A stretch of 64,000 nt of DNA. Origin: Verrucomicrobiales bacterium. GTDB taxonomy: Bacteria > Verrucomicrobiota > Verrucomicrobiia > Limisphaerales > CANJXF01. The translations under genes and the position numbers were made by a program. Below the pieces are notes generated by a model. The model was not told where the DNA came from. It saw only the letters and a program-made list of their open reading frames with translations, and made no database searches. The number at the start of each line of letters is the position of its first letter. Position 1 is the stretch's first letter. Below are positions 3,070-21,983 of the stretch, piece by piece. The stretch is taken from assembly GCA_947478865.1 (NCBI GenBank), contig CANJXF010000006.1, forward strand, positions 28,750 through 92,749, written 5' to 3'.

Positions 3070-3107
3070 ATTTATTCTTCCACCGTCATCCTAAGCAGAG
3101 AAGCGGT

Positions 3108-3887
3108 TCATTTAAAAGCGGTTTGCACATTTGTAAGCGCTGCGCTGGGTTTCGGCGTCCCCGCGGCGAGCTGAAATTGAGGGGCGGATTTTGCGATGAA
3201 CTTTTTCATCTCGTTAAACGTTGCCTCTTCGTTTCCAGGATAACAGCGCGAGAAATAGCTGATGTAGGCCCACCGTTCCAACGTGCCGGTGCGCAACAGG
3301 TTTTTCGCCATCGAAATCATTCGCTCGTTGTGGCTGGCGGTAAGTTTCTGGTCGGCGACGAACCAATACGCATAGATGCCGCGAATGGTTTGCATCGCTC
3401 CGGATTCGTCTTTGTGGCGAATGCTCGCCGTCAATTTCATGAGGGGCAATTCGTAGGGAAAGGGCTTTTCCATTTTGACGGTCACCAATTCGCTCTGCTC
3501 AATCGTCCACCCCTGCCCTTCGAGGCAAAATTGCGGTTTGTGCAAACTCGTGCGGTCCTGGCCCATTAACACCACGCCGACATCCACATTTTTCATCGTG
3601 TTGGGAACCCAGTAGCGACGTTTGCCGAAGGTCGTGTCCTTGGGCAGCATCGTTAGCTCAATCGTGCTAACCGGCAATATGCCCGATTCGTAGCCCAACA
3701 CGTCCTCAGGCAAAATCACCGTCACCTCGGCAACGCGATTCGTGTTCTCATCGAACAACGGCGTGTTGCCAAGCAAAACACCGGGTGCCCCCAAACGTTG
3801 ATTGCCTTTGACGTGGAACAAAAAGCCCGCTGTCGATCCGATCATCGCAAGCCCGGCCAAAAATAAAATCCATTGCGTTTTTTTCAT
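3108..3887 (-). CDS. epsI: Exosortase-associated EpsI family protein
   Basis: N-terminal TM; DRTSLHKPQFCLEGQGW matches the EpsI H-x-P-x-x-C-x-x-x-x-G-W motif, plus YAYWF. Overlaps the exosortase stop. Confidence 0.85.
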   Translation of the reverse strand: MKKTQWILFLAGLAMIGSTAGFLFHVKGNQRLGAPGVLLGNTPLFDENTNRVAEVTVILPEDVLGYESGILPVSTIELTMLPKDTTFGKRRYWVPNTMKNVDVGVVLMGQDRTSLHKPQFCLEGQGWTIEQSELVTVKMEKPFPYELPLMKLTASIRHKDESGAMQTIRGIYAYWFVADQKLTASHNERMISMAKNLLRTGTLERWAYISYFSRCYPGNEEATFNEMKKFIAKSAPQFQLAAGTPKPSAALTNVQTAFK

Positions 3888-4855
3888 GCGGTTTGCTTCT
3901 CGGCGGGCGTGGGAGCTTCAGGTTCGCGCAGCCACACGCCCATGAGCAGCATCGCCACAATCGCGACGATGTAAGTCAGGAACCCGGACCATTCGTGGAC
4001 GAAGTCGCCGGTTTTTTGGCCGAACGCTTCCGCGGCAACCACAATGCTGGTGAGGCGCAGGACATTGCTCGCCACGGCCAATGGCACAGCCATGAAGATG
4101 ACAAGAAGCTGTTTCCAGGTTTTTTTAAACGTCATCAGCCCATAAATCGTGGTCAGGGCCAGAAGCGAAATCAAACTGCGAATTCCGCTGCAAGCGGCCG
4201 CGACGTCGTAATTGTAGGCGCCGTTCGCATCGAAAAGCTGGGTTCCTTTTTTTATCACGGTCAGGCCAAAAACGCCGTGCGTGATGCCATAAGTGATATT
4301 CGTCGCAAAAAGCCGCAGTGGAAATGTGACCGTCTCCACATAACCGCCCACCGGAACACAAAAGACAAACAGCACGAACGGGAAAAAAGTTGCTTTCAAC
4401 CAACCCACACCCCAGGCCAGCCCAATCAAACCGTAGATGCCCAAAAAGAGGCCGCAAATGGAAACGCGGGGTTGTTGCACAAGAAAACCGAACGCATGCA
4501 GCAGCAAGGCGAAACCAACCATGATCAAGCCCGGCCACCAGGTTTTTTGGGGCGTGGCCAGCAGTTCTTTTCGCTTCCACCAAAATAAGGCGAGCACCGC
4601 AAATGGAATCAACATGCCGTGGCCGTCCTCGGTGTTCTTAGCGTTGTAGAGGTCATACATCCAGTTCATCAGCGACGTCGTGTCGATGTAGCCGAAAGTG
4701 GAATTGCCAATGAAATGAAACAGGGCGAACCACGCGGCGAGCAGGCCGAAGAAGAGCCGTTTGTTGGAGAGCGCCTGCCAGCAGGCGCGGAATTCATCGC
4801 GAAATCCCGGGCTCTCTTCCGTCGGGCTGGTTGGGGTTGCGATTTCGGTGCTCAT
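3884..4855 (-). CDS. Exosortase (EpsH family)
   Basis: About 8 TM helices. Catalytic triad motifs VAAACSGIRS (Cys), NVLR (Arg) and VHEW.G (His), plus HGMLIP. Confidence 0.92.
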   Translation of the reverse strand: MSTEIATPTSPTEESPGFRDEFRACWQALSNKRLFFGLLAAWFALFHFIGNSTFGYIDTTSLMNWMYDLYNAKNTEDGHGMLIPFAVLALFWWKRKELLATPQKTWWPGLIMVGFALLLHAFGFLVQQPRVSICGLFLGIYGLIGLAWGVGWLKATFFPFVLFVFCVPVGGYVETVTFPLRLFATNITYGITHGVFGLTVIKKGTQLFDANGAYNYDVAAACSGIRSLISLLALTTIYGLMTFKKTWKQLLVIFMAVPLAVASNVLRLTSIVVAAEAFGQKTGDFVHEWSGFLTYIVAIVAMLLMGVWLREPEAPTPAEKQTA

Positions 4856-4975
4856 TATTTTCCCGGACGAACCGGAATGGTTTTCATTAGTGTCGCGTGC
4901 TCAATTTCCGGATCGGTCAGTCAGGCAGAATCATACAACCAAACCGGTCAACTTCAACAGCAGGAATATTGATCC

Positions 4976-6445
4976 TCAGTGCGTCGGCCTTTCCCAAACC
5001 GAGAATGCCGGCAACGTGGATCGCTGTAGGTATTTTGCATTTTTCAAGAATTGACCAACGGCATTTTGAGAATCGTAAACATCGGGTTTGGACACGAGAA
5101 CCACGTCGGGTGGGGCGTCAGGCAGGGAATTTGCCGCCACGTTGTTGATCAATATGACATTGCCCTGGGAGATTTCGCTGCGGATCGGCACTTTGTAAAA
5201 TAGGGCGCTGAAACGATCGGCATTCCACCACACGGTTTTTCCGCTCGATGACGCGGCTTTCGCGATTTCAGCCGCGCCGCGGTAATCGTCCTTTCGATGT
5301 CGGTCAGCCAAACGCAGCGACAAACAGGAGACCAGATTAAATCCGATGAACAAGGCAGCCAAGATTCTGGGGATGGCGCCGGGGCGGTTCAAGAGTTGAG
5401 CCAGGCCGAATCCAAGCCAGACCAGCACAGCCACGATCAACGGGGAGAAATGCCGGCCCAACACCCGAAAATGAGCCAGGAACCCAAGCGCCAGAAGGCT
5501 TGCGGCGGCACCGGCTAAAAAAAAGGCGGACCAGAAAAGAATTTTTTGCGATGCGAATTTGCCGCGCTCGCGCCACGCCATCCACAAAACGCCACCGAGA
5601 ACCACGGCGTAAATTCCCAGGATTCCGGCGTAGGGTCGAAGTGCGATGAGTCCGTTGTCCCGGATTTCCAGACGGCCGGGCCCGAGTCCGCTGAAACCGA
5701 GAAACTCGTAGCCAACGAACAACAAGTTTTTGAAATCTGTTCCAGCCGCACCCGATGCGCGCGCCCCGAGGCTGAGCGTCCACGCGAAATAAACTCCCAA
5801 CCCGAGCATAGCCAGGAACGTCACCGACCAGAGGACGGGAAAGGGCTTGACCCATTTCCAAATTCGTTTTGGACCAAGGATGAATAAGGAACTCGCCAGC
5901 GCGGCACTCAGCCAGATCACTCCCAAAAGATTGCTGCCGCAAACGAGGAACATCCCAGCTCCCAGACCAGCGGACCAAAGGCGTTGGGAGGCGTGCGAAA
6001 GTTCCAGGCCGGAATTGAGGCGGCAGAGCGCGGCTAAAATCAAAAATGTGCCGCCCAGTTGCATGATGTAGGGGCGCGCCTCGTTCAAATAGAACCAGAG
6101 GAACGGGGAAAGTGCGGCGACGACGAAAATTCCGAATCGCAGCTTTTTAAGCTCGGAGAGCGCATTGAGCAAAGCGCCGAAGCCAAGGAGAAGCCACGGC
6201 AAATTACTGAGGCGAAGGAGCCATTCGCTCGATCCAATCCATTTTTCCCAGGCCCACAGATACGCCATGAAAAGCGGCATCTGCAATTCCGAGCCTCGAT
6301 CGTGAATCATCTGGTTCCAGCACGCTTTTAAGGTGGGCAAGCCGGCCTGCCACGCCGTGGTGGCCTCATCAATCCACAAGCTTTGATTGGAAATGGCGGC
6401 AAGAGCAGCCGCACAAAAAAGGAAAATAAGCGGCCAAACTTTCAT
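4976..6445 (-). CDS. GT-C fold polytopic membrane glycosyltransferase (GT39/GT83, PMT/ArnT-like)
   Basis: SLWIDE after TM1, P-L-x-x-x-Y-L-W-x-W, WLLRLS, NEARPY and DDYRGAA motifs, with many TM helices. Confidence 0.75.
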   Translation of the reverse strand: MKVWPLIFLFCAAALAAISNQSLWIDEATTAWQAGLPTLKACWNQMIHDRGSELQMPLFMAYLWAWEKWIGSSEWLLRLSNLPWLLLGFGALLNALSELKKLRFGIFVVAALSPFLWFYLNEARPYIMQLGGTFLILAALCRLNSGLELSHASQRLWSAGLGAGMFLVCGSNLLGVIWLSAALASSLFILGPKRIWKWVKPFPVLWSVTFLAMLGLGVYFAWTLSLGARASGAAGTDFKNLLFVGYEFLGFSGLGPGRLEIRDNGLIALRPYAGILGIYAVVLGGVLWMAWRERGKFASQKILFWSAFFLAGAAASLLALGFLAHFRVLGRHFSPLIVAVLVWLGFGLAQLLNRPGAIPRILAALFIGFNLVSCLSLRLADRHRKDDYRGAAEIAKAASSSGKTVWWNADRFSALFYKVPIRSEISQGNVILINNVAANSLPDAPPDVVLVSKPDVYDSQNAVGQFLKNAKYLQRSTLPAFSVWERPTH

Positions 6446-6505
6446 GGCTGACGCGCTGTTTGCCGCATCGCCGGAAACGGGTAAGCGCTCGGGATCGCCA
6501 CAGGA

Positions 6506-7483
6506 TTATTTGCGCTGAGTCATTTCGCCGTAAATCCAGGCGTAAGTTTTTTCCAGGCCATCGCGCAGCCGCACGTTGGGCTCCCAGCCGAGATATTTTT
6601 TGATCAACGTGTTGTCGCTGTTGCGTCCGTTCACCCCTTTGGGCGCGGACAAATTGTAGCTGCGCTTGAGCTTGATTCCGGCGATGTCCTCGACGATGTC
6701 CACCAGTTGGTTAATAGAAACCAGTTCGCTGCTGCCAAGATTGATTGGCTCTAAAATATCGCTGGCCAGAATGGTTTGGGTTCCTTTCAAGCAATCGTCG
6801 ATATACATGAAACTGCGGGTCTGATGGCCATCTCCCCAGATTTCGATTTCGTGTTTGCCGGAAAGTTTTGCGGCAATGACTTTCCGGCAAATCGCGGCAG
6901 GCGCTTTTTCGCGACCGCCTTCATAGGTTCCGAGCGGCCCGTAAACATTGTGGTAGCGAGCGACGCGGCTTTGCACGCCAAAATCTTCGCGGAAATGGCG
7001 GCACATGCGTTCGCTGAAAAGTTTTTCCCAGCCGTAGCCGTCTTCGGGCATCGCGGGATACGCATCGGATTCCTTCAACGCGGTGACGTTTGGATCGCGC
7101 TGTTTGTCGGCATTGTAAACGCAAGCCGATGACGCGTAGAAAAATCGTTGCGCACCGTACTTCTTGGCGGCTAGGAGCAAATGCGTGTTGATCAAAACCG
7201 TCAGCATGCAGAGGCCCTTGTTAAGTTCGATGAAACCCATGCCGCCCATGTCCGCCGCCAGATTGTAAACGACGCGCGCATCTTTCAATGCCGTTTCGCA
7301 GGCTTCCTTTTCCTGAAGATCGAGCTGCAAGTTCTCCACTTCCGGAAAGGTTTGATACCATTCGCTGAACGGTTTGATATCGACGGAGCGAACATTGGTG
7401 TGGCCCTGGCGCAGAAGGTCGGCAATAAGATGACCGCCGATAAAACCACCGCCGCCGCAAACCACAATTTTATCTGATTTCAT
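6506..7483 (-). CDS. GDP-mannose 3,5-epimerase-like NAD-dependent epimerase
   Basis: GGGGFIGGH, NLAADMGGMGFI, YASSACVY, DGYGWEKL and GGREKAPAA.CRK, the GME signatures. Start ATG 7483. Confidence 0.85.
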   Translation of the reverse strand: MKSDKIVVCGGGGFIGGHLIADLLRQGHTNVRSVDIKPFSEWYQTFPEVENLQLDLQEKEACETALKDARVVYNLAADMGGMGFIELNKGLCMLTVLINTHLLLAAKKYGAQRFFYASSACVYNADKQRDPNVTALKESDAYPAMPEDGYGWEKLFSERMCRHFREDFGVQSRVARYHNVYGPLGTYEGGREKAPAAICRKVIAAKLSGKHEIEIWGDGHQTRSFMYIDDCLKGTQTILASDILEPINLGSSELVSINQLVDIVEDIAGIKLKRSYNLSAPKGVNGRNSDNTLIKKYLGWEPNVRLRDGLEKTYAWIYGEMTQRK

Positions 7484-7514
7484 AGGTAAAAAGTGCGGCA
7501 CTCTAAAGGCGGCC

Positions 7515-8282
7515 TTATTCGAGTGCAAATTTTTTTATTCGCAAAAGCTGACAGGCCGCTTGGAACACGAAGCGCGGATTGTTTTTGAAATAACGCCGCC
7601 AAAGTCGCTTCGGTTCGACGCACAAACGGAAGAACCATTCCAGGCCGGACCGTTGCATCCAGCGGGGTGCCTGAACAATTCGCCCGCTGTGAAAATCAAA
7701 CGCCGCGCCGACGCCGACCATCAGCGTGACGTCGAGTTTTGGCAGGTATTGCGCCATGAATTTTTCCTGTTTTGGCGTGCTCAAACCAACCCAAAAGATG
7801 TCCGGCCGGGTTTCAGTCACGAGACGTTCAAGGTCAATTTCCTCCTCTGCGCTCAAGGGGCGGAACGGCGGTTCATAAGTGCCGACGATTTCAATTCCGG
7901 GAAATCGCGCTTCCATCTTGTTTTTCAATTCCCGCGCAACCCCGTTTGCTCCGCCATAAAAAAAATGTCGAAAACCGGACGCGCGGGAAATCTCCATGAT
8001 CTCCAGCATCAGGTCGGGGCCGTAAACGCGGTTCATCTGGCTGAATCCCTGCAAGCGGCCCATCCAGGTCATCGGCATGCCGTCGGGCGTGACAAGAAAG
8101 GCGCGATTGTGAATGACACGAATCTTCGGGTCGTCCTGCGATTCCATGATGCCATGAACTCCGGTGACGCAGACGTAGCCTTTCCGCTGGTTTTTCACGG
8201 CATAAACAAAGGCGCTTTTCGCCAACTCCATATTGATGGCGCTGACGCCGACACCTAACACATTAACTCGATCAATCTGCAT
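7515..8282 (-). CDS. WecG/TagA/CpsF family glycosyltransferase (GT26)
   Basis: PDGMP, RVYGPDLM, VGLSTPKQE, GVGAAFDF, AP.WMQ..GLEW..RL..EP.RL.RRY. Start probably 8282. Confidence 0.93.
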   Translation of the reverse strand: MQIDRVNVLGVGVSAINMELAKSAFVYAVKNQRKGYVCVTGVHGIMESQDDPKIRVIHNRAFLVTPDGMPMTWMGRLQGFSQMNRVYGPDLMLEIMEISRASGFRHFFYGGANGVARELKNKMEARFPGIEIVGTYEPPFRPLSAEEEIDLERLVTETRPDIFWVGLSTPKQEKFMAQYLPKLDVTLMVGVGAAFDFHSGRIVQAPRWMQRSGLEWFFRLCVEPKRLWRRYFKNNPRFVFQAACQLLRIKKFALE

Positions 8283-8379
8283 TCGCGCAGTGAATATCGG
8301 GAGAATTTGGCCGGATTCAACTCTCTTCTGGTGTTTGGCTGCGTTCTGCATTAATTGTTTGGCTCCGCTGAAGTCGTAA

Positions 8380-9606
8380 ATGAAATTGGTTGTATTTGCA
8401 CACGTTCCGCCTCCGCACCATGGCCAAAGCTACATGGTGCACCTGATGCTGAACGGTTTCGGCGGCGATCAAAGAGGGAAGCATCCGCAGTCAATTCCTG
8501 AAGCGAGCAACAGTTACGACATCACCTGTTACCACGTCAACGCGCGGCTCTCGCGGGACCTGGAACAGATCGGCGAACTTCGTCCGAAGAAAATCCTGCT
8601 GCTGTTTGGCTATTGCCTCAAGGCCATCTGGTGTCGCTTTCGCTACGGAGCCAAAGCGCTCTACTACATTCCCGCTCCGGGAAAGCGTTCGGCCCTGTTC
8701 CGCGATTGGATGGTGATGATGCTTTGCCGCCCGTTTTTTCCGAAAATCATTCTGCACTGGCACGCCGCCGGGTTGTCCAAATGGCTCGAGACGGCGCTGC
8801 AGATTCGCGCCCGTTCCTTTACTTACAAATGTCTGAAACAAGCCGACCTCAGCATCATCCTCTCGCGGCACAATCGCGCCGATGCCGAGAAGCTGCTGCC
8901 GCAAAGGATCGAGCTTGTCCCAAATGGCATTCCGGATCCTTGCCCGGATTTTGAAATGGCCATCCTGCCTTACCGATTGGCCAGGCAAGAAGCGCGCAGG
9001 AGAATTCGCGCCGGTGAAAATGCTTCACCGCTGACCACCGGCAGCGCGTCGAACGTGTTTCAAGTTCTTTACCTGGCCCATTGCACGCGCGACAAAGGCG
9101 TCTTCGACGCAATTGCCGGCGTGCTGAAAGCGAATGAAAAACTGGCGCGGGAAAACTCCCCGATCACGATCAAGCTGAATATTGCCGGAGGATTCTTCAA
9201 CCAGAACGAAGAATCGGAGTTTTTTGAAATCCTGAAGCAGCCTGGGGCCGCCAAAAATATCCACTACATGGGCTTTGTCTCGGGCGAGCAAAAGGATGCC
9301 GCCCTGCGAGCCGCGGACCTGTTCTGTTTTCCGACGTATTACCGCAATGAAAATCAGCCCGTAAACTTAATTGAAGCGCTGGCCTATGGTTTGCCGGTGA
9401 TTACCACCCGCTGGCGTTCCGTGCCTGAAACTCTGCCCGACGACACCGGCATTGTGAGCCCGCGGAATCCCGATCAGATTGCCGATGCGCTCGTGCATCT
9501 GATGGCGCAAAGTTACGGCGACGCCTTCCGCCAACATTTCCTGAACAACTTCAAAATCGAACGGCATCTGGAAAAACTCGCCGCCGCGTTTCACAGCATC
9601 GAATGA
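8380..9606 (+). CDS. Glycosyltransferase family 4
   Basis: PPPHHGQ, VPNGI, KG, FPTYY..EN.P..LIEALAYGLPVITT (E-x7-E motif). Confidence 0.9.
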   Translation: MKLVVFAHVPPPHHGQSYMVHLMLNGFGGDQRGKHPQSIPEASNSYDITCYHVNARLSRDLEQIGELRPKKILLLFGYCLKAIWCRFRYGAKALYYIPAPGKRSALFRDWMVMMLCRPFFPKIILHWHAAGLSKWLETALQIRARSFTYKCLKQADLSIILSRHNRADAEKLLPQRIELVPNGIPDPCPDFEMAILPYRLARQEARRRIRAGENASPLTTGSASNVFQVLYLAHCTRDKGVFDAIAGVLKANEKLARENSPITIKLNIAGGFFNQNEESEFFEILKQPGAAKNIHYMGFVSGEQKDAALRAADLFCFPTYYRNENQPVNLIEALAYGLPVITTRWRSVPETLPDDTGIVSPRNPDQIADALVHLMAQSYGDAFRQHFLNNFKIERHLEKLAAAFHSIE

Positions 9607-10391
9607 AGTTCTCCATCGTCACACCCAGCCTGAATCAGGGCGGATTCATCCGCGATTGCATCGAAAGCGTCCGCGCCCAGACCGGGGTCGATTGGGAACA
9701 CATCGTCATTGACGCCGGATCGACCGATGAAACGATTTCTATCGTGAAAGAATATCCGCACCTGAAATGGATTTCAGAGCCGGACAAAGGCATGAGCGAC
9801 GGCATCAATAAAGGATTTCTCAAGGCGCAAGGCGAATGGCTGATGTGGCTCAACGCGGATGATTACCTTGTTCCCGGCTCGCTCGCGAAAGTCGCTGAGT
9901 TCGCAAAAAAGAATGCCGACGCGGACGTGATTTACGGCGAATGTATTTTCGTCGATGAATCGAAAAAAGTCATTCGGCGCCGATGGGAACATGGCTTTGA
10001 TTTTTCGATCCTGCTCTTTTACGGCTGCTTTATTCCATCCACCTCGACATTCATTCAGCGGAAAGTGATTGCCGCCGGAGAATTGCTGAACATCGAATAC
10101 CGGGTCTGCATGGACTTCGAGCTTTACGTGCGCTTGTCCGAGCACGGTTATAAATTCAAGTTCCTTCCCGATGCGCTGGCTTGTTTCCGCTGGCATCCCA
10201 CCAACACGAGCACGACTCAATCGAAACGGCGTTATCAGGAACGACTTCGCGTGCAGCAGGAATACCTTCGCCGACATGGAAAAAACTGGATCGCTGGCGA
10301 AAAAACTATTTTTGCGCTGTGGCGTTTGATCACCATAAAGAGGCTGGTTCTCCGCTTAGTTTCCCGCTATTTTCGGCGGCAAAATGTTTAA
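9603..10391 (+). CDS. Glycosyltransferase family 2
   Basis: SIVTPSLNQ, IDAGSTD.T, SEPDKG, WLNADD (DxD) and MDFEL. Confidence 0.93.
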   Translation: MKFSIVTPSLNQGGFIRDCIESVRAQTGVDWEHIVIDAGSTDETISIVKEYPHLKWISEPDKGMSDGINKGFLKAQGEWLMWLNADDYLVPGSLAKVAEFAKKNADADVIYGECIFVDESKKVIRRRWEHGFDFSILLFYGCFIPSTSTFIQRKVIAAGELLNIEYRVCMDFELYVRLSEHGYKFKFLPDALACFRWHPTNTSTTQSKRRYQERLRVQQEYLRRHGKNWIAGEKTIFALWRLITIKRLVLRLVSRYFRRQNV

Positions 10392-11328
10392 GCTTCGCCA
10401 CATTTTTAAACCGGCCGATGCCCAACAGGAACGCGAATTCGAGCGCGCCAACGTAGAGAATAAGCGCGGTCGCTATCTTGAAACCAATCCCCTCGCCCGC
10501 TACGAGCGCGATCTGGTTTATCGGGAAAAAGTGGATCGGATCAAAGCAGGAATTGGCGAACCCAACGGACTTGTCCTGGACATTGGCGGCAACACCGCCG
10601 GCGAAGCCACGCTGCTGAAACAACTTGGTTACGACATCATCGTTGGAGACATCAACGAAACCGCGCTCGATATTTCCCGTGAACGCGTGGAAAAATTCGG
10701 TTTGAAAGCGCCGGGATACGTCGCACTTGACGTCCACCAATTGCCTTTCAAAGACCAATCCTTCAGCGCGGTCACCGTGATCGAAGCGCTGCATCATTTC
10801 GTCAATTACGACCAGGCGCTCAAAGAAATCCATCGCGTGCTCAAACCCGGCGGGAAGCTTTTCTCGCTCGAACCCTACGCGCTCAATCCGCTTCGGCGCG
10901 CATCGGAGGTTCGCGACCGTTTGCGCGCCACAATTGAGAAAAGTTTCTACATTTCACAACTCACGCGCCTCTGCCAGGACGCCGGGTTCGTCAACGTGAA
11001 TGTCGCATCCGTTCCTACGGGACGCTCCAGTTGGAAGCTGGAGGAAGTTCCGGCCTACCGGCGTCCGATTACGCGGCTTCACGCCTGGCTTTCCGTGAAT
11101 GCACCCTCGGTTTTCGGCACGCTGCGACTTGAAGCCAAAAAAGCCGGAACCATCGCTGAGAATGGCAAACCCGAGCTTGCCCAACTCTTTTGCAGCCCAA
11201 AAAATCGAAACGATTTGCGGCGCGACGCCGACAAAAAGCATTGGGTGGAAGCCAACGGCCAACACGCATTTCCCGAACTGAACGGCATCCCGGTTTTGAT
11301 CGCTGAAGATGCCATTGCATTGAAATAG
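10384..11328 (+). CDS. Class I SAM-dependent methyltransferase with C-terminal Trm112-like module
   Basis: VLDIGG, LPFKDQSF, ALHH, EI.RVLKPGG. C-terminus LFCSPKNRNDL...FPELNGIPVLI resembles Trm112/YcaR. Confidence 0.8.
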   Translation: MFKLRHIFKPADAQQEREFERANVENKRGRYLETNPLARYERDLVYREKVDRIKAGIGEPNGLVLDIGGNTAGEATLLKQLGYDIIVGDINETALDISRERVEKFGLKAPGYVALDVHQLPFKDQSFSAVTVIEALHHFVNYDQALKEIHRVLKPGGKLFSLEPYALNPLRRASEVRDRLRATIEKSFYISQLTRLCQDAGFVNVNVASVPTGRSSWKLEEVPAYRRPITRLHAWLSVNAPSVFGTLRLEAKKAGTIAENGKPELAQLFCSPKNRNDLRRDADKKHWVEANGQHAFPELNGIPVLIAEDAIALK

Positions 11329-11344
11329 CCGATTGCCTCCCGTC

Positions 11345-12682
11345 ATGGCTCAAGCCCAAAACATCGGCACGTTGGTCACGGCAATTTTTCAAACCTGGAA
11401 AACCGCAGGGATCGATTTTCTGGTGTTGCGGAACTATGAAACTCTCCCCGATTTCACGACCAACGATATCGACGTTCTCGTCGACAAAGCCCAACTCCCC
11501 CGCGCCGAGCAGTTGCTGATTTCCACGGCGGCAGCGCATCAATTCCGCCTTCACAACCGCGCGGAATATTCCACGCTCGCCCTTTATTTTTCCCATCCGG
11601 AAGACCTGAAGCAAATTCACTTCGACCTGTTCAGCAATTTGCAATGGCGCGGATTTGAATATCTCGACACAACTGATTTTCTCGCCGCAAAAGTCAATCG
11701 CGGCTCGTTTCCCATTCCATCGCCGATGCACGAGGCAGCCGCCAATCTGCTCGGGCTTTTCATTTACACCGGCCGAATTAAGGAGAGATACAAACCGTCG
11801 ATTTGCTCCGGTTTCCGTGCTGATGAGGAAGGTGCGATCCGTCTTTTGTCCAACACTTACGGCCCAAGCCTGGCCCGCTTTTTAGTAACCAATGCGGTTG
11901 GAGAATGCTGGCGCGTCATCGAAGGGAATTTCGCCGCCCTGCGCCGCGCATTGCTCTCCCGTCAATTTGGATTTCATTCGTGCAAAACCCTGCGCTCGCT
12001 CACGCAGAATTTTGTTCGAGTCCTCAAACGCTTTCTGCATCCACCGGGAGTAATGGTTGTCTTGCTCGGAGCGGATGGGAGTGGAAAATCCACCGTGGGG
12101 GCGGCAATTCTGGACAACCTGCAAAACACGTTCAGCCCGCTGAAAAACGTTTACCTCCACTGGAAACCTCGGCTGTTTTCCGCTGCGAAAGAAACCTCTG
12201 CACACACCAATCCCCACGGCCAGACGACGCGCGGGAAAATTGCCTCACTCGCTTATTTCGCCTTCCATTGGCTGGAATTTTTCTTTGGTGGATGGCGACA
12301 GCTTCGTCCGGTTCTTTTCCGCGGAGGAATTGTTCTCGTCGATCGTTACTATCTGGATTTGTTTGTCGATCAAAAGAGATACCGGTTGCAGGTGCCTCAA
12401 ATCATGATCCGCTTTGCCTATGTCTTCCTGAAAAAACCGGATCTCATTTTGATGCTGGATGCGCCCGCTGAAATTCTTCAAGCGCGAAAACAGGAAGTCT
12501 CGATTCAGGAAACCGCGCGCCAACAATTGGCGTATCGAACACTCGCTGCCAGCATGGAAAATTCCATTCTGCTCGATGCCGCCCAACCGGCCGAAGCCGT
12601 CGCACATCAAGCCACGAAAGCCATTTTGGAATTTCTCATCAAACGAACGCAAAAGCGCTTGGCCAAGGACACTCATGGCTAA
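11345..12682 (+). CDS. Fusion of a Pol-beta-like nucleotidyltransferase domain and a thymidylate-kinase-like P-loop domain
   Basis: N-terminal VLRNY..LP....NDIDVLV plus HFDL (NTase DxD..D). C-terminal GADGSGKST, VDRYY.D, KPDLILMLDA and ARKQE. Confidence 0.72.
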   Translation: MAQAQNIGTLVTAIFQTWKTAGIDFLVLRNYETLPDFTTNDIDVLVDKAQLPRAEQLLISTAAAHQFRLHNRAEYSTLALYFSHPEDLKQIHFDLFSNLQWRGFEYLDTTDFLAAKVNRGSFPIPSPMHEAAANLLGLFIYTGRIKERYKPSICSGFRADEEGAIRLLSNTYGPSLARFLVTNAVGECWRVIEGNFAALRRALLSRQFGFHSCKTLRSLTQNFVRVLKRFLHPPGVMVVLLGADGSGKSTVGAAILDNLQNTFSPLKNVYLHWKPRLFSAAKETSAHTNPHGQTTRGKIASLAYFAFHWLEFFFGGWRQLRPVLFRGGIVLVDRYYLDLFVDQKRYRLQVPQIMIRFAYVFLKKPDLILMLDAPAEILQARKQEVSIQETARQQLAYRTLAASMENSILLDAAQPAEAVAHQATKAILEFLIKRTQKRLAKDTHG

Positions 12683-13775
12683 AAACCCCAAATGGACGGA
12701 CTTGTTTTCCGCGGATCGAGGGCAAGCGAATTCGCATTTGCTGCAGCTGCGCGTCGTTCAAAAACGAGGTTGTTCATTTCTGGTGCTGCCGATGGATGCG
12801 CAGCCCGCGGTCGAGGCACTCTCGCTTTATTCGGCTCAAACTCCCGCCGCACGGCTGTTCAAGGCATTTCTTCGATTTGTCATGACGTGCCGGATTCCGC
12901 TCGGATTTGAAACCGCAGAGCTGCGCATCGCAACGGATGCGCGGTTTGTCCAATTTCTTTTGAAGCTGGGCAACCGTTCCACGATTCCGCCGCTGGCCAT
13001 TGCCTGCGGGAATCCGAGGACCGAAGGACAGCGATTTATCATTTTGATCTTCGATCCCGCCGGGCAACCCAGCGTGATTGTGAAAGCCGGGCTCAGCGAG
13101 ATCGCTCGATCGTTGATTGCAAAAGAAGATCAATTCCTAAAAAACGTGCCGGCGAAGTTGGGCATTCCCCGAGTTCGTGAATCGTTTGAATCCGAGCAGA
13201 TTCGCACGTTGAGCTTAGACTACATGCGAGGTCAATCACCGCGATTCACCGATTACACGCCCATGTTTTCGCTGGTGAACTCATGGCTGGAAGAAGCCCA
13301 GCCGATGCCGCTGCAGGAATTCGCTCTCTGGCGCCAACTCAAACTCGCCGTAACTTCGCCGCACTTTTCAAAATTGGAGCCGCGCATAGCCGAGAAAAAA
13401 ATTTACTCCACAATCTACCACGGCGATTTCGCGCCCTGGAATATCAAGGTGAATCATGATTCCTGGACAGCATTGGATTGGGAACGCGGCGAACTTGCCG
13501 GAATCCCGGGTTGGGATTGTTTCCATTTTCTCATCCAACCCGCGATTCTGGTCACACGAACGAGCACAGCATCTCTGGTGGAAGAGATTGAAACGTTTCT
13601 ACATCGGGATGATTTTAGGAGTTACGCAAAGCGAGCGCAAATCGCGGGAGCAGAGCGGGAGCTGGTTCTCTCGTATTTGCTGCAACAAATCGACGTCATC
13701 AAACCGAGCGAGGGAATGGTCGCGACGCAGAACCTCTTCAACGCCCTCGCCTGTCGCTGGCTAGCCGCCGCTTAA
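12675..13775 (+). CDS. APH/choline-kinase-like phosphotransferase
   Basis: VIVKAG (Lys), HGDFAPWNI (catalytic loop) and LDWE (Mg-binding). ATG 12675 overlaps the end of the upstream gene. Confidence 0.8.
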   Translation: MAKNPKWTDLFSADRGQANSHLLQLRVVQKRGCSFLVLPMDAQPAVEALSLYSAQTPAARLFKAFLRFVMTCRIPLGFETAELRIATDARFVQFLLKLGNRSTIPPLAIACGNPRTEGQRFIILIFDPAGQPSVIVKAGLSEIARSLIAKEDQFLKNVPAKLGIPRVRESFESEQIRTLSLDYMRGQSPRFTDYTPMFSLVNSWLEEAQPMPLQEFALWRQLKLAVTSPHFSKLEPRIAEKKIYSTIYHGDFAPWNIKVNHDSWTALDWERGELAGIPGWDCFHFLIQPAILVTRTSTASLVEEIETFLHRDDFRSYAKRAQIAGAERELVLSYLLQQIDVIKPSEGMVATQNLFNALACRWLAAA

Positions 13776-14522
13776 TTTGCGCCGGATGCGGTGGGCGGCC
13801 TTGGCCAGCCATTCACCACCGGAAAGGGGGGTGATTCGGTGCAAAGCAAAGCGCGGAGTAGCCTGCGTATTCACCCCGGATTGCGTGGTGCAAGCCGTGG
13901 AATAACCCGCGGCTTCCACGGCATCGCGAACCGCCGGATTCCACGAGCCGAACGGATAACAAAAATGACGAATGGAAATTCCAAAAGCGTCTTCCAAGCT
14001 TTTTCTACTTCCTGAAATTTCTTCGCGCAACTGATCCGGCCCCACCTTCCGCAGGTTTGGGTGGGTGGCGGTGTGCGAACCAATTTCGTGCCCGGCCGCA
14101 AGCCATTCTTTGATTTGTGACGCATCCATCAACCTTTCGGAAACGTCCCCTTTGGCAACATCCCATTCATTGCGCCGACCGAGAAAATCCGAAACTAAGA
14201 ATTGAATTGCGCTGAATTGGTGCCGCGCCAGAATTTCGAGCGCATTGCGGAAAACGTTTTCGCAACCGTCATCAAACGTGATGACAATTTTTTTGGAAAC
14301 GTTGCCGTTCGCGCGTTCTACGTCTGCAAGAGTTCCCGAAGTGAAACCAGCCTGACGCAATTCTGCCAGCTGTGAGGCAAACCGTTCGGGCGAATGGTAG
14401 AGGAATGGATCGAGCGTCCGTGCTGGAGGCTGGGCGACTTTGTGATACATCAAGACCGGCAAGCCCAGCGCGAACAGCCTTTGCTGCGACGACGACAGGA
14501 AAAAGTCTGACGGCGTAATCAT
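13761..14522 (-). CDS. Polysaccharide deacetylase (CE4/NodB)
   Basis: VLMYHKV, ITFDDG, GSHTATH and FCYPFG. Confidence 0.92.
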   Translation of the reverse strand: MITPSDFFLSSSQQRLFALGLPVLMYHKVAQPPARTLDPFLYHSPERFASQLAELRQAGFTSGTLADVERANGNVSKKIVITFDDGCENVFRNALEILARHQFSAIQFLVSDFLGRRNEWDVAKGDVSERLMDASQIKEWLAAGHEIGSHTATHPNLRKVGPDQLREEISGSRKSLEDAFGISIRHFCYPFGSWNPAVRDAVEAAGYSTACTTQSGVNTQATPRFALHRITPLSGGEWLAKAAHRIRRKLSGG

Positions 14523-14544: not shown

Positions 14545-15483
14545 CTAGCGGGCCACTGGTTTCGCGACCAGCCAGGAAATTAAGACAAGCAAATCCTCTT
14601 TCGAGTAATGCTGAAATTCCGGTGCGAGCTGGATTTTATTCAAGTCATCCGCTGAGCCGGCGGTGTTCGATTCCTTGGCGATTTGGAACTGCGCATCCTT
14701 CAGCAACTCGCGGTAATCAGAAATTCGAAGTCGGTTCTGCCAGATCAGCGGGCTGTTCAAATACCCCCATTGTTTGGGCGAGAATTTCAAAAAATTGATG
14801 GGCGTAATGGAACGGTCGAAGTACCAAAACTGATCGATCATATTAAGGTAATGACTCTGCGCGGCCTGGGAGGAAGCGATCCTGCGGAATTCTGCGAAGA
14901 TATTCGCCAGCACCGGTCGTGGAATATATTCGAGCACGCCGGTTGAAAAAAACAAATCAACGGAACCGTCGGGCAACCCGGTTTTTTGCGCATCTTGAAC
15001 CCGCACATGGATATTCAGCCTTTCGAGAAAATCGATCGGCTCATCGGTGTCGACCCGGCTATTGAGTTCCCTTAGCTTGGCCATTCGATCCGGGCGCAGG
15101 CGGGGCAGGTGTTTTTTCAAGGTGCCGTTGGCATCGTGCTCAAAGAAAAATTGCAGCATCTGCTTCACGCGCGCCCGCTTGAGCAACGGATCGATGTCAA
15201 ACGTCCAAACGTGTGACGCTCCGCAGAGAAAAAGCCCGACCGGCACGGTGGGAAACCAACCTGTCCCGAGTTCCAGCGCGCTGAAATTTTCCGCGCGTTC
15301 CGGGTAAAGTTCCAAGTAATTCTCCAGGTGCATCCGGCAATCGTTCAGCTTGCCCTCAAACCGATTTGGACTGAGTTCCAATGATTTTGTGACGTAGCGC
15401 TGAAAGAGTTCATTCCATCGCTGACTTTGGGGCAGGAGCGAAATGGTCCGCTGAATTGCAGATTTGATCAGCCAATTGGGCAT
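14545..15483 (-). CDS. SAM-dependent methyltransferase (glycan-associated)
   Basis: LELGTGW (motif I), DLFFSTGVLEY and QNRLR.SDY. Start probably ATG 15483. Confidence 0.78.
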   Translation of the reverse strand: MPNWLIKSAIQRTISLLPQSQRWNELFQRYVTKSLELSPNRFEGKLNDCRMHLENYLELYPERAENFSALELGTGWFPTVPVGLFLCGASHVWTFDIDPLLKRARVKQMLQFFFEHDANGTLKKHLPRLRPDRMAKLRELNSRVDTDEPIDFLERLNIHVRVQDAQKTGLPDGSVDLFFSTGVLEYIPRPVLANIFAEFRRIASSQAAQSHYLNMIDQFWYFDRSITPINFLKFSPKQWGYLNSPLIWQNRLRISDYRELLKDAQFQIAKESNTAGSADDLNKIQLAPEFQHYSKEDLLVLISWLVAKPVAR

Positions 15484-15582
15484 TCGCAAATTGTGCCAAG
15501 ACGATTCACAAATGTGAAGAATGAATCCAAAAAGGCGGCGGGCTTGCATTGGCAATTCTGATTCTTTAGCGTGTTTTTCCAG

Positions 15583-17463
15583 ATGCCTCACCGTCTTAGA
15601 GTTCTTCTTTCAGCCTATGCCTGCGAACCGAATAAAGGCTCCGAACCGGAGGTCGGTTGGCAGTGGGCCTTGCAGATGGCCCGTTTCCATGACGTGACGG
15701 TGCTTACCCGGCGCAACAATCGCCTGGAGATTGAGAAGGAGCTTGAGGTTCTTCGCGGAAAAGTTCCACTGCCCACGTTTCTGTATCATGATGAAGAGCC
15801 GGTGTTTCTGCTCATGAAGGCGCGTTTCCGGGCGGTAAAATCGTATTACGTCCTTTGGCAAAAATCCGCTCACGAGCTGGTCGCGCAACTTCACAAAGTG
15901 AAGCCATTTCACCTGCTCCACCACGTCACATTCGCCGGCTATCGCTATCCGACCGTCATCTGGGATCAGGGAGTGCCTTGCGTGTGGGGACCCATCGGTG
16001 GAATTGAATCAATCCCGATGCGATTGCTGCCGTGGACGCATCCAACTTCGCTGATCCATGAGTCGCTGCGCAACATTCATAATTCTCTTCAATCGCTTCC
16101 GTTCAACATCCTCCCAAAGCGAGCGCACCAGTCCACCACCGTTCTCGCCTCCACCCATGAGATGCAGCAAATCCTGTCTCACCTCGGAACTGATGCGAAG
16201 TTGGTTCCCACAATCGGGTTGCATCTGGAAAGTTCGCCTGCACCAAGGAAAGAACGAAAGCCGGGGCCAATGCGGCTACTTTTTGTGGGCAATATCATTA
16301 CTCTGAAGGGAGTGGATTTGGCGCTGCAGGCGTTAAAGAAGTCCAATACGGACGCGACATTCACGTTGGTCGGCGACGGGAATTTCCTCACCGCTGCCCG
16401 GCGGCTCGCGGAGAAACTCGGCTTGCAGGCGCGCGTCGAATTTCGCGGGCGATTACCGCGGGCGGAGGTCTTGCGGCTTTATTCCGACTTCGATGTTTTT
16501 ATTTTTCCAAGCCTTCATGATACCGGCGGCTATGCTGTGATCGAAGCGATGTCCGCCGGTTTGCCGGTAATCTGTCTGGATTGCGGAGGGCCAGCAGTGG
16601 CCGTGCAAGCAAACTGCGGGCGAAGAATCCCGTTGGGCTCACGAGCGAAAGTCATCGAGCACCTCGCAAGCGCCATTTGCGACTACAACCAGAATCGAAA
16701 CCTTTTCATTGAACATGGAGACGAGGCCCTTAAGTCCGTTTCGGAACGCTACGGTTGGGGGAGAAAGGGCGAGCAAATGAACGAGATTTATCAAGAAACC
16801 GTTGCCTCTGTTAAAGCGCCGAGGCAGACGAGAAATGTCTTTCAGACTGCCTGGAAGTTTTTCTCGATTAAACAATTTCTCCTCAGCACATCCATCTTGT
16901 TCATGCTCGGCGTTTTGGGTTTTTTAAGCGTGAGCGCTCTGAAGAACAAAGCGGAGCTCATCGTCACCAAGAGTTTGCCCAGGCTTTCCTACGCGGGTGC
17001 GGCCAACGCGAATCTCTCCCAGGCCTTTAATCGAACCCTGCTGCTGCTGACCACCGAAGACGCCGATAAAATCGCGGAATTTCAGCGCGACATCGAGACC
17101 TTCAGCGAAATCACCACCAAGTGTTTGGAGGGTTACAAGAATTCAGTGGATTCCGATTTCGATAAAAGAAACTTCGAACGACTTCTGCATAAACGCGAGG
17201 CCTATATTCTGGTCAGGAACCAGGTCGTTGAGCTGGTGGGAAAGAATCAAAAAAAAGAGGCAACAATCCTGTGCAAAAAGTCACTTTTACCGGCCTATCT
17301 TGACTACAAGGAAGCGGGCGATGTCCTTTTGGATTACAATATGCAAGAGGGACGAAGCCGGGGTGAAACCATCATGGATGTCTGCACCTACACGCAGTTA
17401 TTCGTGGCGGTATTTCTCGTCGGCGTCTTCATCATGGGCTTTATGATCGGCCTGTTCCGATGA
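15583..17463 (+). CDS. GT4 glycosyltransferase fused to TM + MCP-type four-helix-bundle sensor + TM
   Basis: SAYACEP..GSEPEVGW, KG, FPSLHDTGG.AVIEAM..GLPVICLD (GT4). Then TM FLLSTSILFMLGVLGFLSV, about 150 aa of amphipathic helices resembling 4HB_MCP_1, and a terminal TM. Confidence 0.75.
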   Translation: MPHRLRVLLSAYACEPNKGSEPEVGWQWALQMARFHDVTVLTRRNNRLEIEKELEVLRGKVPLPTFLYHDEEPVFLLMKARFRAVKSYYVLWQKSAHELVAQLHKVKPFHLLHHVTFAGYRYPTVIWDQGVPCVWGPIGGIESIPMRLLPWTHPTSLIHESLRNIHNSLQSLPFNILPKRAHQSTTVLASTHEMQQILSHLGTDAKLVPTIGLHLESSPAPRKERKPGPMRLLFVGNIITLKGVDLALQALKKSNTDATFTLVGDGNFLTAARRLAEKLGLQARVEFRGRLPRAEVLRLYSDFDVFIFPSLHDTGGYAVIEAMSAGLPVICLDCGGPAVAVQANCGRRIPLGSRAKVIEHLASAICDYNQNRNLFIEHGDEALKSVSERYGWGRKGEQMNEIYQETVASVKAPRQTRNVFQTAWKFFSIKQFLLSTSILFMLGVLGFLSVSALKNKAELIVTKSLPRLSYAGAANANLSQAFNRTLLLLTTEDADKIAEFQRDIETFSEITTKCLEGYKNSVDSDFDKRNFERLLHKREAYILVRNQVVELVGKNQKKEATILCKKSLLPAYLDYKEAGDVLLDYNMQEGRSRGETIMDVCTYTQLFVAVFLVGVFIMGFMIGLFR

Positions 17464-18465
17464 TCACGTTGCGGCCAACAATTTGGATTCGACCAAGCGG
17501 CTTTCGACAAACGCTTTTACTCTCACCCACACCTCCGCCTCACTCACGTTCAGCAGGCAATGGGGCGCGGGGAAACGGCAATAATCAAAGCACGGTTTGT
17601 ACGGACAGGCCTTTCCCTCAATAAAATCACCGCGCGGATGCAGGGGCGCAAACCACTCGGGTAACTGTGCTCCCATGATGGTAAATGTCGGGCACCCGCA
17701 TTTTGCGGCAAGATGGCCGGGGCCGGAATCGTTGCCAATGAAGAGTGTTGAGTCGTCAATTATCTGCAATAGCTCGGCGATCGTTTTCGGCGCAACAACC
17801 GTTTTTTCGCCAAGGTCCAGCCATGATTGCTTCTGGTCGGCGTCGCAAGCCACCTGCACCGGGTGTCCAGAGGCACGCAGGCGTTCCACGATCTTTTTGA
17901 AACGAACCAGAGGCCAGACTCTCACCGCTTGCCCTGCCCCGCTATGGACTAAAATTTTCTCCCCTTCCCTGAGCCGCTCAAAGTTCAGATCTTCTTTTGG
18001 AGGGAGTTCCAGGCCCAACGCCTTGCCGAGTTCACGCCAACTCTGATAACGGTGCGCGGTGCGTTCCGGCAATGGCAGCGGCTGGGTTAAAAAGCTCTGG
18101 CTGTGCAAGCGCGAAAATCCAAAGCGCCGTTCCGCACCAAAAGACCACAAAAGGAAATGATCGCGCGGATCCCATCTGCCCGAGACACCCACTTGAAAAC
18201 GTTGCGATGAAAGATCCCGCCACAGCCGGAAAATCCTCAACCACGGCCAGGAAAGAAACCGATATTTCCCAGTGAACTCCGTCCAGGGTGCCGAGAAGGG
18301 AATCACGGATACTTCGGGCCAAAACCGCTTTTGCAGTTCCAGAGCGAACGGTTTTGCGAGGAGAGTCACCTCATATTTTTTACTGGCTGCCTTTAGGAAA
18401 GGCGTGGCAATCGCCAAGTCGCCAATCCCCCACAATTCCAGCACGATTAGTTTTGGTTTCATCAT
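17464..18465 (-). CDS. Glycosyltransferase family 9 (heptosyltransferase-like)
   Basis: IGDL....P, HSGAG...R.WP and FIGNDSGPGHLAA. Confidence 0.9.
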   Translation of the reverse strand: MMKPKLIVLELWGIGDLAIATPFLKAASKKYEVTLLAKPFALELQKRFWPEVSVIPFSAPWTEFTGKYRFLSWPWLRIFRLWRDLSSQRFQVGVSGRWDPRDHFLLWSFGAERRFGFSRLHSQSFLTQPLPLPERTAHRYQSWRELGKALGLELPPKEDLNFERLREGEKILVHSGAGQAVRVWPLVRFKKIVERLRASGHPVQVACDADQKQSWLDLGEKTVVAPKTIAELLQIIDDSTLFIGNDSGPGHLAAKCGCPTFTIMGAQLPEWFAPLHPRGDFIEGKACPYKPCFDYCRFPAPHCLLNVSEAEVWVRVKAFVESRLVESKLLAAT

Positions 18466-21247: not shown

Positions 21248-21928
21248 GTGGTGAGGCCGAAGAATTCAGTGAAAAACAAAATTGCCTTCACGTTGATCGA
21301 GCTCTTGGTCGTCATCGCGATCATCGCGATTCTCGCGGGGTTGTTGTTGCCCGCACTCGCCAAGGCAAAAGAAAAAGCCAATGCCACGCAGTGCCTGAAC
21401 AACCTGAAGCAATGGGGCTTGGCCACGCAGCTTTACGCCACCGACAACAACGACTATTTGCCGCCAGAAGGTTTTGGCAGCCCAGGAGCAGGCCCCATCA
21501 CGAGCAGCGCCTGGTATGTTGATTTGCCGAAAATGCTGGGCCTTCCGGCTTACGACACGATGCCATGGCGCACGAATGCGATCAAACCAGCGCTTTCCCT
21601 CTTCGTTTGTCCGTCCAATCCGCGGCTCAGCAATGGCAACAATCTTTTCCATTACTGTCTCAACGAAAACGTCGATGGAACCGGCGTCAACGACAAGCCA
21701 ACGAAAATTGGCTCGATCAACAACCCAACCCAGATGGTCTGGATCTTTGATTCGAAAAACCTCCCCGCCGTTGGCGGATGGACCTTCGTTCACACCAATC
21801 TCCACAGCAAAGGCGCGCAGTTCACTTTTCTCGACGGCCACGCGGCGCGATTTAGAAGCGCGGATTACTGGGATTTCGCCAGCAACACAGCGCGCACAAA
21901 CAATCCGAATCTCCGCTGGATTCCCTGA
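21248..21928 (+). CDS. Prepilin-type N-terminal cleavage/methylation protein with H-X9-DG motif (PVC expanded family)
   Basis: [40 protein letters not shown] and [13 protein letters not shown]. Confidence 0.88.
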
Positions 21929-21983
21929 CGAATCTTTTCCAAATTCTTTGCCTTGCCGACTGGCTCCCGGTTAAATTTCGCGG

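Follow-up and report, generated by a model that had tools for sequence, protein, structure and literature searches.

A verrucomicrobial glycosyltransferase fused to a chemoreceptor-type four-helix bundle: a possible ligand-responsive tether in surface-glycan synthesis

Can a periplasmic sensor module of the chemoreceptor type act directly on an enzyme that helps to build the bacterial surface? The question is raised by a gene on the forward strand of the window, i.e. of the whole stretch of 64,000 nucleotides from a Verrucomicrobiales bacterium (contig CANJXF010000006.1) that was analysed here. Within one reading frame this gene joins a glycosyltransferase (GT) of family 4 (GT4) to a periplasmic four-helix bundle (4HB) that is flanked by two transmembrane (TM) segments, and we refer to it as GT4-4HB. 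Bacterial polysaccharide synthesis is known to be controlled by means of transcription, tyrosine kinases and c-di-GMP receptors, and a GT under the direct command of a chemoreceptor-type sensor would let an outside chemical reach the structure of the surface glycan by a path both new and very short. The reading that we favour, with a probability of about 0.42, is that the module constitutes an optional, ligand-responsive and dimerising membrane tether, which tunes one glycan-building step. The gene and its parts are located as follows (pLDDT, predicted local distance difference test; LBD, ligand-binding domain).

15583..17463 (+): gene for GT4, linker, TM1, periplasmic four-helix bundle and TM2, 626 aa plus stop (open reading frame (ORF), translation, Pfam)
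15583..16806 (+): cytoplasmic GT4 domain with GT-B fold, residues 1-408 (PF00534, AlphaFold2 model, Foldseek)
16807..16872 (+): disordered, unconserved linker, residues 409-430 (pLDDT, alignment)
16873..16941 (+): TM1, residues 431-453 (hydropathy, alignment)
16942..17376 (+): periplasmic four-helix bundle of the 4HB_MCP_1 family, residues 454-598 (PF12729, model of the module, Foldseek)
17032..17307 (+): residues equivalent to a known ligand pocket, i.e. R484, S508, T511, R538, Y541, R545 and Y575 (HMMER alignments to the LBD of the chemoreceptor MCP2201)
17377..17460 (+): TM2, residues 599-626, one residue before the protein end (hydropathy)

The sole open frame in this place is 15571..17463 (+), which comprises 630 aa when read from a GTG. 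Starting at the ATG at 15583 it yields 626 aa and the same N-terminus as in 25 aligned relatives, and by this agreement that ATG is likely the true start. Pfam recognises Glycos_transf_1 at residues 226-370 (E 7.7e-27, 94.3 bits versus a cut-off of 26.4) and 4HB_MCP_1 at residues 432-591 (E 1.7e-20, 73.8 bits versus a cut-off of 27, covering model positions 12-171 of 181), and reports no HAMP, MCPsignal or kinase family for this protein at E <= 1. A hydropathy scan gives exactly two hydrophobic segments (~429-455 and ~597-626), the second of which is followed by a single arginine, and the C-terminal end, ...G(L/F/I/M/V)(F/L/A)(K/R), is common to all 25 aligned relatives. The GT is the only cytoplasmic domain of the protein. 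An earlier, sequence-only reading of this DNA had described the frame as a GT4, a short linker, TM1, amphipathic helices and TM2, ending directly after TM2 without HAMP, chemotaxis or kinase output, and both its description and its coordinates agree with Pfam, the hydropathy scan and the AlphaFold2 model (its TM1, at 16876-16935, corresponds to residues 432-451).

Several familiar protein types were considered for this architecture and discarded. A methyl-accepting chemotaxis protein (MCP) is ruled out, as no HAMP or MCPsignal domain follows TM2 and the chain ends one residue later; a 4HB receptor-enzyme with the layout of a histidine kinase (HK) or diguanylate cyclase is ruled out as well, since the enzyme precedes TM1 and the linker is disordered. 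A polysaccharide co-polymerase (PCP, Wzz type) was rejected because no Wzz/PCP family is found in the protein at E <= 1 (Pfam). In NCBIfam no family exceeds its cut-off for either the whole protein or its C-terminal part, the best being EpsH (81.7 bits versus 800), and the XrtA/PEP-CTERM glycosyltransferases TIGR03088 and TIGR04063 were dismissed at 75.9 bits versus 409.05 and 47.1 versus 442.05, respectively.

That the two halves truly belong together follows from the relatives, for which we use our own labels (L0xx for loci and P0xxx for proteins; G000 is the source genome of the window). Among the matches listed, the query included, PF00534 and PF12729 are both present in 119 of 120 rows, at 48-80% identity and mostly with a length of 620-640 aa, and P0097 is the only listed row without the sensor. 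The cultured strain Pedosphaera parvula Ellin514 encodes the fused form too, annotated merely as 'glycosyltransferase'; public records generally name these fused proteins 'glycosyltransferase' or 'hypothetical protein'. GT4-4HB is a real and conserved gene of Verrucomicrobiota. The sequence-only reading had asked whether the architecture recurs in the phylum or whether relatives always encode the halves as separate genes, in which case a recent loss of a stop codon would explain the frame: most relatives are fused and a few are split, and the stop-loss reading is not borne out.

A chimeric assembly, or such a stop loss, without functional meaning would find some footing in the adjacent split genes that exist in some relatives, and in the nature of the read evidence. 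Logan contigs from 4 runs of 2 studies span 15400-17600, and with it the junction at 16780-16900 for which coverage had been called for, with 0 differences, although these runs are contigs that may be the window's own source and add little beyond the assembly; no RNA run was among those listed as containing the stretch. The fusion is, however, shared by those 119 listed rows from many independent assemblies and by 20 of 80 named loci (the protein of the cultured strain among them), and both halves are under purifying selection. The artefact reading has next to no probability left and is refuted for practical purposes.

The source genome (97.31% complete) contains no other 4HB_MCP_1 domain than this module and has 0 MCPsignal matches, which means that the module is no spare part of a chemoreceptor; the organism is probably devoid of chemotaxis receptors. 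Two HAMP-containing proteins (L002 and L003) were seen in the same genome. Among other genomes of the same genus (n=8) the module occurs in 0/8, and GT paralogues, of just 28-31% identity, in 5/8. In a phylum-wide sample of 401 genomes a close module was found in G000 alone, with 20 others matched at 18-29% identity in frames of MCP length; the order-level search was more informative than this sample.

The enzyme half is a GT4 by both fold and family match. The full-length AlphaFold2 model (mean pLDDT 83.3, predicted template modelling score 0.62) has a GT-B fold of two Rossmann-like halves up to residue 408, and the top Foldseek matches of this part are the retaining GT4 enzymes MshA, BshA, PimB', WaaG and PimA (E 1e-17 to 1e-12). 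In the alignment with 25 relatives, K242, H312, D313, T314, G315 and E321 are invariant. GT4 enzymes are expected to carry a motif of the E-x7-E type in their C-terminal half, and here D313-x7-E321 is present in 25/25 members, the first position being Asp rather than Glu. No Pfam model for N-terminal GT4 regions matched the N-terminal half of this protein, which contains a lineage-specific motif, GSEPEVGW.

The helices of the C-terminal half (429-490, 494-519, 525-553 and 557-625 in the full-length model) form a module that, when modelled alone, reaches a pLDDT of 93.7. Foldseek returns the LBD of MCP2201 as the best match (7wrm_A, target TM score 0.90, root-mean-square deviation 1.6 A), followed by the LBD of Vc1313 (8bsa_A, 0.87) and then by Tsr, Tar, PcaY and HK sensors; among solved structures, the profile of the module also matches the MCP2201 LBD chains, at E 1e-10. 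Both the family match and the fold thus bear out the earlier claim that the C-terminal part is a homologue of 4HB_MCP_1 sensors. The MCP2201 study (PMC10735184) reports that malate and citrate occupy a site within the bundle, where they are bound by R81, T104/T105/T108, R135, Y138, R142 and Y172, that mutants in this pocket lose their responses, and that the ligands change the dimerisation of the LBD and swing alpha4; it also describes a chimera approach for this sensor. We mapped the residues named there onto the fused family by ungapped HMMER alignment and counted their equivalents over 25 fused members. R538, Y541 and R545 are retained in 25/25, T511 in 24/25, R484 in 22/25 and Y575 in 20/25, which agrees with the module having been read as a sensor; A474 is kept in 24/25 as well.

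A comparison with 24 relatives of MCP length plus the reference tells which of these positions are informative. The equivalent of T108 is a threonine in just 2/25 of them and that of R81 an arginine in 10/25; these positions vary in the MCP relatives and are kept in the fusions, and specificity positions are therefore fixed within the GT-fused family, as would be expected if its members shared one ligand class. The R/Y/R/Y clamp is characteristic of this branch of the sensors. Selection, estimated from four close pairs with unsaturated synonymous divergence, gives a ratio of nonsynonymous to synonymous substitution rates (dN/dS) of 0.14-0.22 for the periplasmic bundle, versus 0.11-0.24 for the GT. 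Judged by these ratios the bundle is under purifying selection, and is therefore more than a plain anchor, which would not need such selection. In all, the bundle resembles a working sensor, with putative ligand binding and a putative ligand class.

The module is, in addition, predicted to pair. Its homodimer prediction scores 0.71 (0.71, 0.71 and 0.72 in three runs), versus 0.00 for the best of 3 controls, with a partner pLDDT of 84 or higher and at least 95% of the contacts common to the runs; in the calibration of this score, the mark was reached by 20/30 proteins solved as pairs and by 1/23 solved as single chains. The predicted interface runs along TM1/alpha1 and alpha4/TM2, in a Tar-like manner. 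G443, G446, F447, S449 and L453 are the invariant residues of TM1, and G443, G446, F447 and L453 fall in the predicted interface, as does G619, another invariant TM glycine.

How could such a protein work? In the reading that we favour the gene product would be a two-pass inner-membrane protein with its N-terminal GT4 in the cytoplasm, a placement that is based on the presence of two TM segments and on the general knowledge that nucleotide-sugar transferases work in the cytoplasm. There it would add one sugar to a lipid-linked surface glycan during its assembly by the cassette around it, which comprises a priming transferase and an exosortase, besides other GTs, a deacetylase, methyltransferases and a GT9. 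TM1, bundle and TM2 would form a chemoreceptor-type sensor that faces the periplasm, pairs as a Tar-like homodimer via TM1/alpha1 and alpha4/TM2, and retains an internal pocket equivalent to the carboxylate pocket of MCP2201. A small acidic periplasmic ligand entering this pocket would shift the dimer state or the packing of the TM helices, and thereby alter how the two tethered GTs are positioned on the membrane with respect to one another and to the lipid-linked acceptor; in relatives with separate genes the GTs, associated rather than tethered, would be affected likewise. One glycosylation step would in this manner be tuned to outside conditions. The coupling would proceed via tethering and oligomerisation rather than through a rigid signalling helix, and the ligand-dependent dimerisation described for MCP2201 provides a precedent for a read-out of this kind. 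That the module affects the GT is our inference, as are the binding of a ligand and its class.

A number of observations weigh against ligand control of the enzyme and have to be set beside this proposal. The first concern the connection between the two halves. Mean identity amounts to 0.58 in the GT, 0.39 in TM1, 0.35 in the bundle and 0.47 in TM2, and to 0.19 in the linker, which varies in length between 12 and 47 aa (17 fused genes), has a dN/dS of 0.22-0.49 in the four close pairs, and is disordered in the AlphaFold2 model (pLDDT below 50 at 412-427). Being disordered, of 19% identity and variable in length, it is poorly suited to passing on a conformational change. The enzyme, moreover, sits on the TM1 side, whereas Tar-type receptors signal through TM2, after which a single residue is left here. 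The halves also occur as neighbouring but separate genes, namely in two clades that are independent of each other (L049/L051 and L071/L074) and in L090: a GT of ~406-419 aa is followed 0-85 nt downstream by a module of 203-204 aa (the GT of L090 is cut by the contig end). In L073 a second, different GT4 stands between the family GT and TM1, adjoining the latter, and P0082 and P0118 add an N-terminal sulfotransferase; such added enzyme domains suit a general membrane platform. The coupling between GT and module, in short, looks loose. As for the sensor itself, the R/Y/R/Y core is also common among the MCP-length relatives plus reference (22, 16, 20 and 20 of 25), and part of the pocket conservation may hence be a family-wide or structural trait, and the dimer score may come from solved MCP dimers that the model had memorised.

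The second group of observations is evolutionary and relates to the 80 named loci, which were found through a GT-specific motif and in which the module was sought within 6 kb. Next to the 20 fused loci, 5 are split into adjacent genes, 1 is apparently frameshifted (L087) and the rest have no module within that distance. A tree of 74 GT domains holds 21 fused, 4 split and 47 GT-only rows and 2 without an assigned state; it was obtained by a quick IQ-TREE search with SH-aLRT support and midpoint rooting, and leaves out L075, L086, L087, L090, L104, L112 and L118 for their short or broken GT matches (of these, the frameshifted L087 and the split L090 carry the module). Parsimony on this tree, on which the split pairs L049/L051 and L071/L074 form separate clades, counts 12 changes of the module state, and branches with good support force at least 6 of them; the tree does not settle in which order gains and losses took place. 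Fused L043 and GT-only L063, for instance, are sisters with a support of 99. In L060 (5884-7371, +), a GT-only orthologue, the C-terminal tail retains the linker and a truncated TM1, which marks it as derived from a fused ancestor by loss. A search with the module profile at E <= 1e-5 found nothing in 5/5 GT-only genomes and recovered the module in 5/5 known carriers. Close orthologues without the module imply that the GT works without it and that the module is an accessory, which again argues against gating of the enzyme by a ligand.

Two side observations were made among these loci. The GT frame of L076 (6001-8918, +) continues into an aspartokinase (AA_kinase plus ACT; 972 aa, open at the contig end) without an intervening stop, by an unusual fusion or else through an error in sequencing or assembly. 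Four loci (L045, L057, L087 and L106) hold the verrucomicrobial-type gene on contigs of metagenome-assembled genomes labelled Bifidobacterium, Binatia or Solibacteraceae, likely due to mis-binning or mislabelling rather than to gene transfer.

The same observations could be accommodated by a captured sensor that does no sensing, but holds a dimer of the GT near its lipid-linked acceptor, with the pocket residues serving to stabilise the bundle. This passive anchor and dimeriser, which the sequence-only reading had already named as its alternative, is a live rival that we consider possible, if somewhat improbable. The floppy and unconserved linker, the naturally split gene, the additional enzymes on the same platform, the R..Y...R core that is widespread in MCP relatives and the TM glycines in the predicted dimer interface all fit it, and so do the GT-only genomes, the L060 remnant and the repeated loss of the module with retention of neighbours (an orthologue of the neighbouring GT9 gene is found in 5/17 fused versus 6/18 GT-only loci, and one of a 438-aa neighbour in 8/17 versus 7/18). 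A single TM helix would nevertheless suffice for anchoring, whereas a periplasmic domain of 145 aa is held here at the dN/dS given above; positions that vary in MCP relatives are nearly fixed (T511, R484 and A474, in 24/25, 22/25 and 24/25); and buried Arg-Tyr-Arg clusters would be costly without a ligand. If the module were merely an anchor, it would still show clearly how a sensor domain can be taken over to serve as a dimerising tether.

Taken together, a floppy link that tolerates being cut and has room for another domain means that the module is no rigid transducer, and a periplasmic domain of this size with a conserved pocket under selection means that it is more than an anchor. The idea of a ligand-gated GT, as proposed from the sequence, thus stands as regards the homology to sensors, the GT as sole cytoplasmic domain, the conserved fusion and the pocket, and is in part opposed, as regards the gating proper, by the linker, the split genes, the added domains and the orthologues without module. 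Control of the GT by an outside chemical is plausible on the sequence evidence, in the looser form of a ligand-responsive tether.

The relatives of the module outside the GT family bear on a further possibility. An exhaustive search with the module alone gave 370 representatives at E <= 1e-3 (29 at E <= 1e-30), the best 150 of which were assigned to classes.

Stand-alone TM-4HB-TM proteins of 191-234 aa, without output: 71 of the best 150 (found among proteins P0126-P0270)
MCP- or kinase-like proteins: 25 of the best 150
GT or long N-terminus plus module: 12 of the best 150
Fragments: 31 of the best 150
Other or ambiguous: 11 of the best 150

The stand-alone proteins have in common a DTLPGLSxAGxAN motif, which follows TM1, and the R..Y...R core. 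In public sources this large family of output-less 4HB membrane proteins has no name or that of 'hypothetical protein'. Of six short frames that were fetched as possible stand-alone modules, L124, L125 and L126 were set aside because they run off contig ends, and four complete stand-alone copies were examined for neighbours. The copy in L122 comes after a GT4 that belongs to another lineage; the cluster also contains two further GT4s, a carbamoyltransferase and a weak Wzy match (E 1.1e-05, below cut-off). A second copy adjoins an L,D-transpeptidase and a third sugar-type oxidoreductases. In L036 (4048-8666, -) a stand-alone 4HB lies directly upstream of a match to an extracytoplasmic-function (ECF) sigma factor, which is weak (E 3.9e-04, below cut-off), and of a 928-aa Ser/Thr protein kinase with tetratricopeptide repeats; this 4HB may be the sensor for the ECF-sigma/kinase pair.

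One could extend the favoured reading to these proteins and view GT4-4HB and the stand-alone TM-4HB-TM proteins together as a new class of membrane sensors without a canonical signalling domain, in which an acidic ligand would alter dimer or TM packing and thereby directly control a tethered or non-covalently bound glycan enzyme. We hold this generalisation to be unlikely; if true, surface-glycan structure would follow an outside chemical without a kinase, a second messenger or a transcription step.

The bundle might, alternatively, be a periplasmic docking or feedback unit that binds an envelope component or the product of the pathway, and so couples the cytoplasmic step to later periplasmic ones; candidate partners would be a Wzy-type polymerase, a co-polymerase, the exosortase system or an acidic sugar on the product. 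The recurrence of the module with glycan genes, as in L122, is in line with this, the occurrence of split forms implies that the module acts by non-covalent contact, and the 71 stand-alone proteins among the best 150 representatives must act via partners if they act at all; a pocket for carboxylates, as known from MCP2201, would likewise suit sugar residues with an acid group, uronic ones among them. The other stand-alone copies adjoin unrelated genes, however (the L,D-transpeptidase, the oxidoreductases and the protein kinase with its weak ECF sigma match), no Wzz/PCP match is found in GT4-4HB, and in a comparison of fused, split and GT-only loci no neighbouring gene clearly tracks the presence of the module. 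We consider this docking role improbable.

GT4-4HB lies within a surface-polysaccharide region, the genes of which are located as follows.

17464..18465 (-): GT9 gene (heptosyltransferase-like), convergent (PF01075, E 2.6e-14)
14545..15591 (-): methyltransferase-like gene, divergent (Methyltransf_11, E 2.9e-05)
13761..14522 (-): polysaccharide deacetylase (PF01522, E 2.6e-29)
12459..13775 (+): conserved 438-aa neighbour, probable APH-type phosphotransferase (protein-atlas lead, 0.99, pointing to clusters in which 47-52% of members carry PF01636)
11333..12682 (+): conserved neighbour with weak NTP_transf_5 and thymidylate-kinase-like matches (Pfam)
1660..11328 (mixed strands): upstream polysaccharide genes (Pfam, NCBIfam)
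4976-6445 (-): 489-aa ORF between exosortase and epimerase, no Pfam or NCBIfam match
3884-4855 (-): exosortase (TIGR02602, 106.7 bits versus a cut-off of 105.55)
3108-3887 (-): weak EpsI-like protein, paired with the exosortase

The stop codon of the GT9 gene abuts that of GT4-4HB (17461-17466), and the 3' ends of the two genes overlap by 23 nt in L038 (9277-9299) and by 8 nt in L040 (6698-6705). Its orthologue is adjacent in 4/5 relatives' loci and present in 18/80 loci, and does not track the state of the 4HB (see the counts above). Orthologues of the methyltransferase-like gene occur in 7/17 fused, 1/4 split and 1/18 GT-only loci, with the qualification that kin are not independent, and those of the deacetylase in 5/17 fused and 1/18 GT-only loci. 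The 438-aa protein has no Pfam or NCBIfam match and a sequence search of the PDB came back empty; its orthologue is found in 3/5 relatives' loci and 31/80 loci, and that of the NTP_transf_5/kinase-like gene in 3/5 and 34/80. The ORFs of these two genes overlap, as listed, by 224 nt, and the start of the one at 12459..13775 is therefore probably further downstream. The region 1660..11328 holds a priming polyprenyl glycosylphosphotransferase (TIGR03025, 395 bits versus a cut-off of 295.55), the EpsI-like protein, the exosortase, the 489-aa ORF, an epimerase, a WecG-type GT, a GT4, a GT2 and a methyltransferase. The exosortase reaches no named subtype in NCBIfam (the best is XrtA, 134.5 bits versus 208) and may represent an unclassified exosortase type, and the 489-aa ORF could, by its position, be a polymerase- or ligase-like membrane protein. 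Further along, at 21248-23381 (+), a sulfatase comes after a DUF1559 protein whose N-terminus bears a methylation motif of the prepilin type.

The case is testable, as the fused form is present in the cultured P. parvula Ellin514, the pocket residues can be named, and fused, split and module-less orthologues are available from nature. Our searches of the literature on glycosyltransferases, on 4HB and other sensor domains, on one-component outputs and on the exosortases and PEP-CTERM systems of Verrucomicrobia found no account of a GT joined to a 4HB sensor, and the closest known systems each share a part of the arrangement. A unit of TM helix, periplasmic helical domain and TM helix that serves a cytoplasmic polysaccharide-assembly enzyme is known from Wzc (fused) and CapA/CapB (split). 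The likeness, an analogy only, is that fused and split forms both occur; the order of the domains is reversed, the periplasmic fold is another one, and no Wzz match appears here at E <= 1. SteAB was considered as a parallel and rejected, since its four-helix bundle is described as lying in the membrane, i.e. it is not a 4HB_MCP_1 module.

On the side of the enzyme, the soluble or peripheral GT4 proteins MshA, BshA, PimA, PimB' and WaaG share with GT4-4HB the GT-B fold, Glycos_transf_1 and the conserved nucleotide-sugar-binding half (with invariant K242, D313 and E321 in the present family). Unlike GT4-4HB they have no TM segments or periplasmic domain, and the GSEPEVGW motif, together with the absence of an NCBIfam equivalog at cut-off, sets the verrucomicrobial lineage apart from them.

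On the side of the sensor, the usual homes of the 4HB module are Tar/Tsr, 4HB-type sensor histidine kinases and diguanylate cyclases. Topology (TM-4HB-TM) and fold are alike, with Tsr, Tar and HK sensors among the Foldseek matches, but in these proteins the output follows TM2 by way of a continuous helix or HAMP, whereas GT4-4HB has no such part and carries its GT on TM1 by way of a disordered linker. The closest of all is MCP2201 of Comamonas testosteroni (PDB 7wrm, 5xua, 5xub, 6its and 9kup), the best match among solved structures in both structure and sequence, with the same four-helix bundle between two TM helices. Its pocket residues R81, T108, R135, Y138, R142 and Y172 have identical equivalents in GT4-4HB, and it pairs via alpha1 and alpha4, the same interface that is predicted for the GT4-4HB module. 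It differs in that HAMP and methyl-accepting domains follow TM2, where GT4-4HB stops, having its enzyme before TM1; in an identity to the module of just ~19-21%; and in W71, which is replaced by an alanine in GT4-4HB. Sensor module and enzyme family, then, are each familiar; what is uncharacterised is their arrangement in this protein, which gives the 4HB sensor a new candidate output.

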